Shown here one piece after another: positions 10,810 through 15,627 of a stretch of 64,000 bases of DNA. Made by a program: the position numbers and the translations under genes. Numbering within the stretch: the stretch's first letter is position 1; the number at the start of each line of letters is the position of its first letter. The DNA is from Eledone cirrhosa (Eukaryota): positions 279,124,001-279,188,000 of the forward strand of contig OZ024741.1 of the NCBI GenBank assembly GCA_964016885.1, read 5' to 3'. A model generated the notes under the pieces. It did not search any database and was not told where the DNA came from. It saw only the letters and a program-made list of their open reading frames with translations.

Positions 10810-11434
10810 TTTTCGAATATTAATAAAAACATTCGATTCGATTGCAATTTTCGCTCTACATGGCTCAGTCTGCTAATATACAAATCAGGCCGATCAGTCA
10901 CTGTGTATTTTTGAAAATAGCATATATTTTCACTAGGGTTCATTCTACTGACATGGCTATAAAATTGAGGCTTGTTTGCATAATTGCAAACGAATCGAAT
11001 GTTATTATTAATATTCGAAAAACTCAGATTACATTTATTGTATTCAGCCATGTAGAGCGAAAATTTTCTTTTTTATTTGAATTTGGCAAAGCCGGCCATT
11101 TATCGCTTCATATACAGGAAACTGACTGGCCAGTCTACTGATATGCAAATCTGGCTGATCAGTGGATCTGCTAATATGCAAATCAGGCCGAGCAGTCACT
11201 GTGTACTTTTGAAAATAGCATATATTTTCATTAGCTCTGACAGTTTGGCAGGTGAACAGTGAGCTGTACTGATGAAGGGTGATACCCAGAAACATTAGTG
11301 TCTACATGCCAACACAAGAGCAAGAATGAAGGGTTCATTCTACTGACATGGCTATAAAATTGAGGCTTGTCTGCATAATTGCAAACGAATCGAATATTAT
11401 TATTAATATTCGAAAAACTCAGATTACATTTATT
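10810..11434 (+). mobile_element. Retrozyme-like non-coding tandem element, family F1 (395-bp unit)
   Basis: GGGTTCATTCTACTGAC repeats at 10936 and 11331; one HHR per complete unit; no ORF; other copies at 56558-57690. Confidence 0.7.
11261..11306 (+). ncRNA. Type I hammerhead ribozyme (F1)
   Basis: TGTA-CTGATGA-A-GGGT-GAT-ACCC-A-GAAA-CA-TTAG-TG-TC-TACA. Confidence 0.75.
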
Positions 11435-11469
11435 ATATATATATATATATATATATATATATATATATA

Positions 11470-11590
11470 TACGATATATTAACAAATGGAAACTATATTT
11501 ATAAAACCATATTTATTTCATTATACATATTTCAAGGACACCGAGTTAAATTATGGTGCGCTTTCATAAGATAAAATATAATATAGATCA
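11470..11590 (-). mobile_element. pLTR fragment of the family at 58834-59185, with degenerate HHR
   Basis: Near-identical AAATGGAAACTATATTTATAAAACCATATTTATTTC; stem II CACC/GGTG here vs TACC/GGTA there. Confidence 0.65.
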
Positions 11591-11626
11591 TATAATATAG
11601 ACCAGTCTGATAAAATATAATATAGA

Positions 11627-13900
11627 CCAGTCTGTCGGGCGCCAATCGGCGCCGCTGGTCACAGCACGTCGTACTGTTTCAAGGTCAAGGTCAAGGTGAT
11701 ATATAATAATAATAATAATAATATTATTATTTATACTTATATATACACAATATATAATTATAAACAGGAAAGGTCAGTAATTCATTACCACCTTATTACC
11801 AGTAAGAAAAATAGCTCAATGTAAATACATCAGATGTTTTACAGAGCCGGAATATAAATTACAGAACAATCAAAACTATGTTCAAAACATTTTATTGCTG
11901 ACAATCGTTTCTTACAAGATTTCGTTTTGGAATCATCGGAGCACTAGCAAAGTTTAGACATATAATTAACCTCCTATTCCACAGAACAATTGTAAAGATA
12001 CATAGATGTTAGTGTTGTCATTAACAGTGTCATATTCAAAGAGAGAAGATGATGTGGTCAGTATCAGTGGATGCGACAAAGATTATAAAAGAATAATACA
12101 ACAATTATAGAGGAATTAAAGAACAAAGTTACTCGCAAAATGAAGACATTAGCGGTACATATGCAAACGTATAAAAAGATCGCAAAGGTATTAAGCATGT
12201 ACAGAGGTTATTCTGTACATGCATCCACTGATACTGACAACATCATCAAATAAAATACGGATTCCCCCCCACCCAAATAAAAAACGGACTCCAAATAAAA
12301 AACTATCCCCCCAAATAAAAAACGGACTCCAATTAAAAAACGGATCCCCCACAAATAAACAACGGATCCCCAAATAAAAACGGACCCCAAATAAAAAACG
12401 GATAGCCCCCAAATATAAAACGGCCTCCAAATAAAAAACAGACCCCAAATATAAAACGGACACCCAAATAAAAAACGGACTCCCAAATAAAAAAACGGAA
12501 CCCAAATAAAAAAACGAATCCCCCCATATAAAAAATGGACTCCAAATAAAAAACGGATCCACCCCAAATAAAAAACGGACCCCAAATAGAAAACAGACTC
12601 CAAATAAAAAATGGTCGCCCAAATAAAAAACGGATCCCCCCCCCCCAAATAAAAAACGGAACCCCAAATAAAAAACGGATCCCCCAAATAAAGGACGGAC
12701 CCCAAATGAAAAATGGAACCACCAAATAAAAAACGGACTCCAAATAAAAAACGGATCCTCCATATCAAAAATGGACTCCAAATAAAAACAGATGACGCCC
12801 CCCATATAAAAAAATCGATCCTCCATATAAAAATGGACCCCCAAATAAAAAACGGATGCCATCAAAATAAAAAACGGATCCCCCCCCCCCCATATAAAAA
12901 CGGACCCCCAAATAAAAAACGGATGCCCCCAAAATAAAAAACGGATCCCCCCACCAAATAAAAAAAGGATCGCCCCCAAATAAAAAACGGATCACACGCC
13001 CCCATATAAAAAACGGCCTCCAAATAAAAAACAGATCCCCCCCCCCCCTTATAAAAAACGGATCGCCCCCAAATAAAAAAACGGATCACACGCCCCCATA
13101 TAAAAAACGGCCACCAAATAAAAAACAGATCCCCCATATAAAAAAACGGATCGCCCCATATAAAAAACGGACCACAAATAAGAAACGGATCCCCCAAAAA
13201 TAAAAAACGGACTCCAAATAAAAAACGGATCCCCGCCAAATAAAAAATGGATCCCCCCGCCTCCAAATAAAAAACGGACTCCAAATAAAAAACGGACCCC
13301 CAAATAAAAACGGATCCCTCCCCCATATAAAAAACGGACTCCAAATAAAAAACGGATCCCTCCCCCATATATAAAACGGACCCCAAATAAAAAACGGATC
13401 CGCCCCCCCCCCCATATAAAAAAGGGACCGCCAAATAAAAAACGCCCCCCCCCCCCCCCAATGAAAAACGGACCCCTAAATAAAAAACGGATCCCCAAAT
13501 AAAAAACGGATCCCCCAAATAAAAAACGGATCCCCAAAATAAAAAATGGTCCGTTTTTTATTTGTAGGGGAACCGTTTTTTATTTGGGGTCTGTTTTTAT
13601 TCGGAGGGAGGGGGTATTTGGGGGCGATCCGTTTTTTTATTTGGAGGGATCCGTTTTTTATTTAGGGGGATCCATATTTTATTTGGGGTCCGTTTTTTAT
13701 TTGGGGGTCTGTTTTCTATTTTGGAGGCATCCGTTTTTTATTTTCTAAAGTTATTAGTTATTATTTATAGTGTTCGCCAGTTGTTAGTTATTTTCCTCGT
13801 TTGACTTCCCACTTGTCAAATTTAAAATCATCAATGCATCACCACAACCCATATGGGAAACCTATATTTTCTATGAATTTCAAAACAATATTTCGATGGT
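11627..13900 (-). mobile_element. Putative non-autonomous Helitron/Helentron-like element carrying a minisatellite
   Basis: Minus strand: GGCGCC-GATT-GGCGCC hairpin, then CTGG|T end at 11627; TCAAGG repeats at 11679-11699; right boundary uncertain. Confidence 0.4.
12247..13744. repeat. ~20-24 bp minisatellite (CCCCAAATAAAAAACGGAT) that switches strand at ~13548
   Basis: Direct reading; after 13548 units read CCGTTTTTTATTTGGGG. Confidence 0.9.
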
Positions 13901-14070
13901 TTGCATACAATATATGTATACACACGCAAAGACACACACACACACACACACACACACACACACACACACACACACACACACACACACACACACACACACA
14001 CACACACACCCACCACACACACACACACACACACACACACACACACACACACACACACACACACACACGT

Positions 14071-14420
14071 ATATGGGCTGATTAGCCTCATTTGCATACG
14101 GAGCTGTAGGTTTTCAGTCCAATATAGCTGCATACATACATGTACGTACAGTTTTTGTATATCGAATAATATACGATATGTTTACGGATAAATATTTGAA
14201 AGCCTTCAGCTATGAATTCTAAAGGAGATGTCTGGCGCAATCTACTTATTTCCAGCAGAAGCAAGGGGCAAGCCACCGACAGATGTTTCTGGCCGGGTGT
14301 CCGTTGTCAAGGTAACGCACCCCTTGCTTCGCTTCCTACCGGAACTCAAATAAGCCGCAAATATATAGTTTTATGTATATGGACTCATTAGCCTCGTCTG
14401 TGTACGGGGCTGTAGGCGAG
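14071..14420 (-). mobile_element. Retrozyme-like unit, family F3 (~306-bp period)
   Basis: ATATGGGCTGATTAGCCTC (14071) recurs as ATATGGACTCATTAGCCTC (14377); HHR inside; no ORF. Confidence 0.6.
14258..14330 (-). ncRNA. Type I hammerhead ribozyme, U3-A8 core variant with extended stem I
   Basis: GAAGCAAGGGG-tgc-GTTACC-TTGACAA-cGG..CCa-GAAA-CATCTG-TC-GGTGGC-ttg-CCCCTTGCTTC. Confidence 0.75.
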
Positions 14421-14895
14421 CTCGGCCTGAACAAGCAATATGTTGATTAAAGTCAGATATAAATAATAGGTCAGAAAGGCTCGAAGCGGAATGGTACTAT
14501 AGCAACCCCGCGCCTGCGTATACATTATCCCAACACATAGCACCAGTTACAGAAGAAAGCTTAAGTCGTTCGTTTGTTTTATCTTGGACTGTTTCAGCTC
14601 TACATCTGAAAAGGGGAAATATCATGTGCATAATACATTATTTTACTTTGTTTGGTTTCATTTACCATCATTTGCCCTTCGTATTTTCTACTGCATTGTA
14701 CTGACATTTAAAAAACTTATCGGTCATTTACTGCATATCTCACAATGCTTCGTATTAATTACATTATTATATATATATATATATATATATATATATATAT
14801 ATATATATATATATATATATATATATATATATATATATATATATATATATATATATATATATATATATATATATATATATATATATATATATATA

Positions 14896-15627
14896 TGTAA
14901 GTATGTATGTATACGTACATACATATATGTATACAGACGTACAGTAGCATGCATATATATATATATATATATATATATATATATATATATATATATATAT
15001 ATATACATACAGGTACACATACATATATTACATATCAGTTTAGCGGACGCTTATTATAACGCCCGCTTTGTTCGTTTGTAAACAAACTGAACAGCCTGAA
15101 TTTTCGCCGTACGGTGTTAAGGCAACCACGTCACCTTTTTGTTCAACACTGACACAGGAACGATGTACTAGTTTCAAGCTTGTTAGCTATCATCAGCACC
15201 GTATACCCTTCTGCCAGATGGTTGAACGTTCGAAAGTATATACTTTCCTTATTAAAATTAACGGCTGAGCAGCCTAATTTGCATATCGAGTGAGTTCGGT
15301 CAGGCGTACCGAAAACGATAAGTTGTAATAAAATGAAAACGAAATTTCATTTCTCACTCTTAGTACGGCACTTACTTAAATGTAAATATGTATGTATACG
15401 TACATACATATATGTATACAGACGTACAGTAGCATGCATATATACAGGTACACATACATATATGTACGTATCAGTTTAGCGGACGCTTATTATAACGCCC
15501 GCTTTGTTCGTTTGTAAACAAACTGAACAGTATACATATATGTATGTACGTATACATACATACTTACATTTAAGTAAGTGCCGTACTAAGAGTGAGAAAT
15601 GAAATTTCGTTTTCATTTTATTACAAC
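14896..15627 (-). mobile_element. Retrozyme-like element, family F2 (~436-bp unit, ~1.4 tandem copies plus an inverted piece)
   Basis: TATCAGTTTAGCGGACGC at ~15033 and 15469; 15531-15627 is an inverted copy of the ~15323-15419 segment; HHR inside. Confidence 0.7.
15160..15202 (-). ncRNA. Type I minimal hammerhead ribozyme (F2)
   Basis: ACGGTG-CTGATGA-t-AGCT-AACA-AGCT-t-GAAA-CTAG-TA-CATCGT; palindromic stem III. Confidence 0.85.

Follow-up and report, generated by a model that had tools for sequence, protein, structure and literature searches.

The hammerhead ribozyme repeats of families F1, F2 and F3 were analysed in a window of 64,000 nt from Eledone cirrhosa (OZ024741.1, positions 279,124,001-279,188,000; coordinates below are window positions unless marked otherwise). 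Short ribozyme repeats bearing a block that resembles the promoters of small nuclear RNA (snRNA) genes number in the tens of thousands in this genome. The results indicated, with a probability of about 0.66, that these repeats are one non-coding superfamily of hammerhead retrozymes with Penelope-type ends, and that the block, hereafter the cassette, is likely an internal snRNA-type promoter for RNA polymerase II (Pol II). The cassette consists of an octamer, a TCAG word within an element like the proximal sequence element (PSE), a TATA-like run and a CA, and it would likely let each copy switch itself on.

Repeat insertions in the window

10810..11038: F1 upstream partial tandem (blastn); cassette with mutated octamer at 10877, ribozyme deleted
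10810-10849: inverted F1 terminal piece of 40 bp, in the same interval as the upstream partial tandem
11040..11433, +: F1 full unit, stopping at the first of two family 3' termini, then (TA)n at 11434-11471
11142..11164, +: tandem duplicate (33 bp) of F1 octamer and TCAG, present in 2-3 copies in F1
11175-11197 and 57319-57341, +: F1 matches to the 23-mer pattern
11175..11186, +: F1 octamer word TATGCAAATCAG, identical to the host U6 word at -78
11188..11209, +: F1 PSE-like element; TCAG position 11192, reading GCAG in this copy
11219..11226, +: F1 TATA-like run, inside the loop of a small hairpin
11249..11250, +: conserved CA of F1, predicted transcription start, with the invariant A86 of the alignment
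11257..11310, +: F1 hammerhead of type I around core 11269, with its cut predicted after 11302; part of the 3' arm of stem I is deleted
14071..14460, -: F3 insertion, a unit of about 306 bp plus terminal repeat, ending in (TG)n
14382..14404, -: degenerate F3 cassette preceding the ribozyme; octamer lost, short deletion
14270..14320, -: F3 hammerhead whose core at 14310 is the U3-A8 variant; cut predicted after 14278
14076..14098, -: intact F3 23-mer in the terminal repeat, running into (TG)n with no ribozyme after it
14931..15530, -: F2 partial tandem insertion, ending in a TA-rich repeat
15263..15285, -: F2 23-mer; octamer 15285-15274, TCAG at 15268
15236..15242, -: TATA-like run of F2, with a start predicted near 15212
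15155..15208, -: F2 hammerhead of type I around core 15196, with its cut predicted after 15166
15530-15631 and 15731-15834, +: two F2 terminal pieces in inverted orientation, whose tail is followed by (TA)n
56553..57693: second F1 insertion, broken by a repeat like a short interspersed nuclear element (SINE); it consists of an inverted copy at 56899-56553 with core 56766 and a sense copy at 57153-57561 with core 57413

Copy number and descent of the families

All four 23-mers that the earlier note had reported in F1, F2 and F3 are present at the coordinates listed above. When up to three mismatches are allowed, the window holds 10 copies of the 23-mer pattern, where 0.03 would be expected (0 of 100 shuffles). 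In the whole genome, which measures 3.0 Gb and is rich in microsatellites, the tighter F2/F3-type 23-mer gave 18,270 exact matches and 0 control matches, and a first look returned 2,171 candidates for F1, 2,146 for F2 and 1,087 for F3. When 40 candidates were scored per family, the best-copy identity was about 90% for F1, about 98% for F2 and about 77% for F3; F2 is the youngest and most abundant family. The units are short and non-coding, occur both dispersed and in tandem, and contain no open reading frame (ORF). Rebuilt monomers measure 340-484 nt, and the window copy of F3 measures 306.

The three families had been described as unrelated, which proved wrong. With the 23-mer and the ribozyme masked, intermediate subfamilies gave alignment Z-scores of 8 (F1-I215), 9-10 (I215-I218), 11-12 (I218-F2), 6-7 (I215-F3c) and 6-9 (F3-F7), and the direct F2-F3 score was 0. 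The families therefore seem unrelated pairwise yet share one ancestor, because the intermediates chain them. Judged from their sequences, F1, F2 and F3 are a single retrozyme superfamily with Penelope-type ends and common descent. An old branch, G, is linked weakly in the same test (Z<=3), and its pattern gave 97 genomic matches against 1 in the control. Eight near-identical G copies lie 30-55 kb apart at G000:C4:94542089-94814602, which suggests a tandemly duplicated segment. The proposal of a new kind of element was not supported, since retrozymes not based on long terminal repeats (non-LTR retrozymes) are already known, molluscs included (PMC7229834).

Association of the octamer with the ribozyme

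The Rfam scan at gathering threshold gave no match in the window. Type I hammerheads are present in the units and their stem II covaries. A genome sample of eighty 10-kb stretches taken at fixed steps (800 kb) contained 88 ribozymes, and 20 of these belong to cassette families (F1, F2 and the new F6, F7 and F8). An exact octamer within 160 nt upstream was found for 14 of the 20 and for 0 of the 68 others; the remaining cassette-family ribozymes have a one-letter octamer variant (2/20) or are 5'-truncated (4/20). Three loose octamer matches in the sample (L108 twice, L110) and one at 127 nt were judged chance or antisense and left uncounted. The 68 others include 11 copies of a tandem array, F9, and a truncated relative, F10. 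F9 lies on the - strand of stretch L140 (6619-9719) as 11 tandem ribozyme units of 310 bp with a PSE-like word and a TATA run and no octamer.

In the reverse direction, a core-like pattern was found downstream of 22 of 59 near-octamers, compared to 6% of random positions, in a loose test with some false matches. The octamer plus core pattern, excluding the main F1 and F2 forms, gave 2,122 genomic matches against 2 in the control. The genome-wide enrichment that the earlier note had named as a check is present, and a high-copy non-coding superfamily with the octamer-TATA-ribozyme layout is supported.

Geometry of the cassette

The motif had been said to end 72, 67 and 72 nt before the core in the three families. 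These distances hold for F1 (72; cores 11269 and 57413) and F2 (67; core 15196). For F3 the value is true only of the degenerate copy at 14404-14382, which has lost the octamer and carries a short deletion, and the intact copy precedes no ribozyme; the F3 family median from octamer to core is 100 nt. A fixed octamer-to-ribozyme distance is only roughly right, with family medians of 89-101 nt and single copies at 64-105, and the constant spacing is that from octamer to TATA.

The layout of octamer, TCAG, TATA and CA is constant at offsets 0, 17, 42-46 and 73-75. Among 127 distinct cassettes, six groups have their first full TATA word at offset 42-44; F3 and most F2 copies have no full TATA word by the score used. 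A CAG word places its A at offset 73, 74 or 75 in 44, 20 and 19 of 124 cassettes, and the TATA-to-core medians vary from 46 to 59 across cassette groups. An alignment of 16 representatives showed no variation in the octamer, in a single T within the TATA run, in a single A some 30 nt further on and in the ribozyme core. Nearly all gaps fall after the invariant A, the large ones between it and the core. The predicted start CA lies about 15-30 nt before the core. Spacing that is fixed upstream and free downstream is as a promoter would predict.

Comparison with host snRNA promoters

The DNA upstream of U6, U2, U1, U5 and U6atac matches in this genome was compared with the cassette. TCAGT or a one-letter variant near -56, together with an AT-rich TATA run near -31, was found in 24 of 24 U1/U2/U5 upstream regions; among the 13 non-redundant regions, TCAGT stands at -55..-58 in all, 12 of them exact. 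The U6 genes at C5, C9 and the C19 array carry TATGC(A/T)AAT(G/T)AG at -79..-77 and TATA at -30, and the best of 6 U6atac matches has a one-letter variant of the octamer word at -78. In the repeats, octamer, TCAG, TATA and putative start CA have the same spacing as in host U1/U2/U5, and the octamer occupies the position that it has in host U6. The best match to the candidate host Pol II element is the second half of the 23-mer and not the octamer, and the match of the PSE-like word to host snRNA genes at host spacing is moderate.

A matrix was built from the 13 non-redundant U1/U2/U5 upstream regions only. Offset 17, the TCAG of the 23-mer, ranked first of 160 positions in 14 of 20 representatives and in the top five in 18, and 0 of 300 column-shuffled matrices equalled 14/20. 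Adding the host distance of 56-58 nt to the matrix site led on or beside the conserved CA in most representatives. In F9, which has no octamer, the best matrix site lies 77 nt before the core, as in F1 (p=0.0007 per site). The resemblance to host snRNA promoters proposed on the precedent of newt satellite 2 is supported by this comparison. Nothing consistent was found in the repeats for a 3' box with a host-derived matrix (best scores 0-9 and scattered, against 5-23 in the host). With U1/U2/U5 the repeats share a TCAG(T) some 56 nt and a TATA some 30 nt upstream of the start, and with U6/U6atac the octamer word just upstream; they differ from host promoters in merging Pol II and RNA polymerase III (Pol III) features, in their weaker matches and in having no 3' box.

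The same comparison bears on a U6-type (Pol III type 3) promoter, for which the abutting octamer speaks, being the same word in about the same place in host U6/U6atac and not in U1/U2/U5; the second 3' ends of F1 and F2 also lie at T-rich stretches. This alternative nevertheless appears unlikely. The octamer-to-TATA distance is 47-49 in U6 against 42-46 in the repeats, and the element after the octamer is TCAG as in Pol II genes instead of the U6 CCT(A/G). In F1 and F6, T5-T6 runs precede the next promoter, so that Pol III termination would lose the promoter from the RNA.

An ordinary mRNA-type promoter independent of SNAPc, with octamer, CCAAT-like box and TATA as in H2B, was found very unlikely. 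As in host U1/U2/U5, the TCAG precedes the conserved CA by 56-58 nt, and F2, F6, G and F9 have no CCAAT there, even though CTAATCAG/CCAATCAG resembles a CCAAT box, Neptune-type ends in this genome have CCAAT and TATA before the ribozyme, and a metagenome contig (L179) has an octamer, TGACG, CCAAT and TATATAAA before its hammerhead. The Neptune-like Penelope ends themselves (L010, L099, L142, L288; window 18484-21240) show repeated CCAAT and a TATA run before a ribozyme-like motif, with a U3-A8 core in some.

Some further observations were made on the host genes. Host snRNA genes have a 3' box ending CAGA(C/A/T)T, and 6 of 16 genes have CTCCCT at -253..-262. Some members of the C19 U6 array (L295, L300) carry a SINE-like repeat at the TATA box, which shifts the octamer to -270. 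At L365:1270-1700 the 5' end of a U6atac copy is joined to an inverted F1 fragment and the chimera ends in (CA)n(TA)n; it resembles an snRNA retrocopy that the retrozyme machinery would have produced with a template switch.

RNA structure of the motif

In most families an arm lying downstream base-pairs with the octamer, and the register of this partner shifts between families. The helix showed no covariation, 464-500 of 500 shuffles being as high on the change measures. The invariant octamer C is paired in only 2 of 16 representatives, and the octamer letters stay fixed while their partners mismatch. The hairpin around the TATA run gave 9 compensatory cells (2 of 500 shuffles), a modest covariation also possible from related sequences. 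The consensus fold of the 16 representatives recovered ribozyme stem II only.

These data concern the possibility that the motif is kept as an RNA hairpin for a Penelope-type reverse transcriptase (RT) or for the circle, its promoter likeness being incidental. The octamer as 5' arm of a hairpin in most families and the compensatory cells of the TATA hairpin are in accordance with such a role. A Penelope RT also requires RNA downstream of the sites where it starts (PMC11167929), and in a tandem RNA the motif occupies that position. The possibility was considered quite improbable, as the octamer helix lacks covariation, the partner register varies by family, and an RNA role would not predict the match to host U1/U2/U5/U6 upstream DNA or to F9. 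Structural and promoter roles can coexist because the promoter becomes part of the unit RNA.

Ends of the repeats and the autonomous partner

The insertions consist of partial tandems, frequently accompanied by an inverted truncated copy, and end in (TA)n or (CA)n. Of 32 microsatellite-flanked 3' ends of F1, 19 lie at one site and 11 at another about 35 nt away. Of 109 F2 ends, 31 and 32 lie at two sites separated by about 50 nt, and 37 run on into the next unit. F6 ends divide 4 and 4 of 9 about 70 nt apart, and those of F3 and F7 are diffuse. At least about 150 nt separate the 3' ends from the ribozyme cut. In a Penelope element the tail between the 3' ends marks two internal RT start sites (PMC11167929; PMC8557442); the paired ends here form a tail of this type.

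Penelope-type ORF remnants are common, with GIY-YIG in 2 of 7 proteins scanned and 10,597 candidates genome-wide. No autonomous partner sharing terminal sequence was found in a small sample of few clades, and no ORF with RT and GIY-YIG was found between the repeats in the units. The earlier note had considered that the units might be plain pseudo-long terminal repeat (pLTR) ends shed by one autonomous Penelope-like family. Penelope-type tails, inversions and microsatellite targets agree with this origin, and vertebrate retrozymes derive from pLTRs (bioRxiv 2026.07.22.740005). It was not seen among the sampled Penelope loci and is extremely improbable: an octamer within about 1.5 kb downstream was found for 0 of 30 GIY-YIG loci (30 of 150 listed matches), the sampled ORF-linked ends carry other ribozyme types without the cassette, and F2 forms 6 consecutive tandem units without an ORF in stretch L074.

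Evidence against an snRNA-type promoter

Several results weigh against an snRNA-type Pol II promoter. The abutting octamer is missing from the host Pol II snRNA genes (U1/U2/U5), and it is absent from 14 other dispersed U6 matches and 5 U6atac matches. Most of these octamer-less matches probably represent retrocopies; L313 and L314, U6 matches with intact-looking 5' ends, are not obviously so. Matrix scores were mostly under those of host promoters (-14 to +14 against 5 to 29 leave-one-out), and the fit was poor for F2 (score -11, rank 2), F2b (rank 6) and F6 (rank 9). The matrix signal requires TCAG and TATA jointly, neither alone beating the shuffles, and the middle of the PSE-like element contributes nothing to it. 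Control families gave comparable best-of-window scores at scattered positions, and the 20 representatives are related by descent. The octamer and the TATA run both lie within hairpins, that of the TATA run partly covarying, and an autonomous partner is missing from the loci sampled.

Proposed mechanism

SNAPc, TBP and POU proteins act at snRNA promoters. In the retrozymes, SNAPc and TBP, aided by a POU protein, would most likely initiate transcription at the CA, some 15-30 nt upstream of the core. Pol II would read through tandem copies because there is no 3' box, and two ribozyme cuts would free a unit-length RNA that holds the promoter of the next copy and may then be circularised. A Penelope-like RT/GIY-YIG protein, supplied in trans, would nick TA-rich DNA, and reverse transcription would begin at either of the two internal sites. 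The resulting partial tandems would again place a promoter before a ribozyme.

According to PMC7229834, retrozyme RNAs are abundant in every tissue tested, an unusual and unexplained finding for a retroelement. A promoter copied from housekeeping snRNA genes would explain this abundance and predicts the start site to the base. Tandem read-through and circular templates would also let a non-coding retroelement keep an upstream promoter. The comparison yields candidate snRNA promoter elements of this genome for use in small-RNA expression vectors. A wider and tentative suggestion is that animal retrozymes generally might parasitise the snRNA transcription machinery, with a promoter that tracks the host PSE and is here a hybrid of Pol II PSE/TATA and U6 octamer. 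If this were true, a promoter reading through without a 3' box would account for the high expression in all tissues, retrozymes would be distinct from autonomous Penelope pLTRs, and newt satellite 2 would be the rule and not an oddity.

Relation to known elements

The promoter of newt satellite 2 reportedly includes an octamer. That repeat, a hammerhead repeat with an internal snRNA-type Pol II promoter (cited in PMC2220036), shares both features with the present ones, in which the promoter is predicted from sequence; the latter differ in forming a many-branched invertebrate superfamily, in their TATA run and in an octamer that directly adjoins the PSE-like word. Non-LTR retrozymes and their link to Penelope have already been published (Cervera and de la Pena 2020, PMC7229834; Li, Clavereau and Pollet 2026, 10.64898/2026.07.22.740005). 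The metazoan ones, with a mussel example, share the type I hammerhead, non-coding dispersed or tandem units of 300-480 bp and a proposed Penelope-like mobilisation; no promoter is described for them in the discussion and some further passages of PMC7229834 or in 10.64898/2026.07.22.740005, and neither main text mentions octopus. In the literature on invertebrate retrozymes no description of an octamer or PSE was found, nor any published account of the cassette or of these host promoter words, with subscription journals, Repbase and Dfam outside the coverage.

Penelope-like pLTRs share partial tandems, inverted 5'-truncated copies and a tail with two 3' ends (PMC4209133, PMC8557442, PMC11167929, PMC2377424), as well as microsatellite targets and U3-A8 ribozyme variants, the U3-A8 core being a variant known from Penelope-like elements (PMC4209133). 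In contrast to them, the present repeats have no ORF, and the sampled ORF-linked ends have no cassette. Drosophila Penelope has a TATA-less downstream promoter (PMC2377424), and TBP and SNAP50 are present at a trypanosome retroelement promoter (PMC8190864).

A metagenome scan gave 28 matches, 24 of them without a ribozyme fold; L173, L179 and L194 fold well and L176 is doubtful. The three that fold well are animal-like contigs with the octamer 80-112 nt before the foldable hammerhead; L173 and L194 contain inverted copies, and L179 adds the further motifs given above. Outside the motifs no homology was found for L179 and L194, and the metagenome contigs do not fit the host-only matrix; cross-species conservation is therefore a lead only.

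Other features of the window

A SINE-like repeat of about 200 bp (54449-55442, 56939-57117 and 57560-57660) occurs in tandem and also as an insertion in F1 copies. Penelope-type hammerheads with long stem II and no cassette lie at 11522-11570 (-), 58887-58935 (-), 59084-59132 (+) and 10331-10363 (-). Penelope-type endonuclease remnants with flanking long inverted repeats were found at 16564-17127, 33351-34184 and 19644-20066. RT frames of the long interspersed nuclear element (LINE) type are present at 41712-45233 (-; 1,174 aa with RVT_1 and zf-RVT) and 50929-52830 (+; 634 aa). A satellite with a repeat of 18-21 bp extends over about 1.3 kb at 12272-13743, with a short inverted block at its end.

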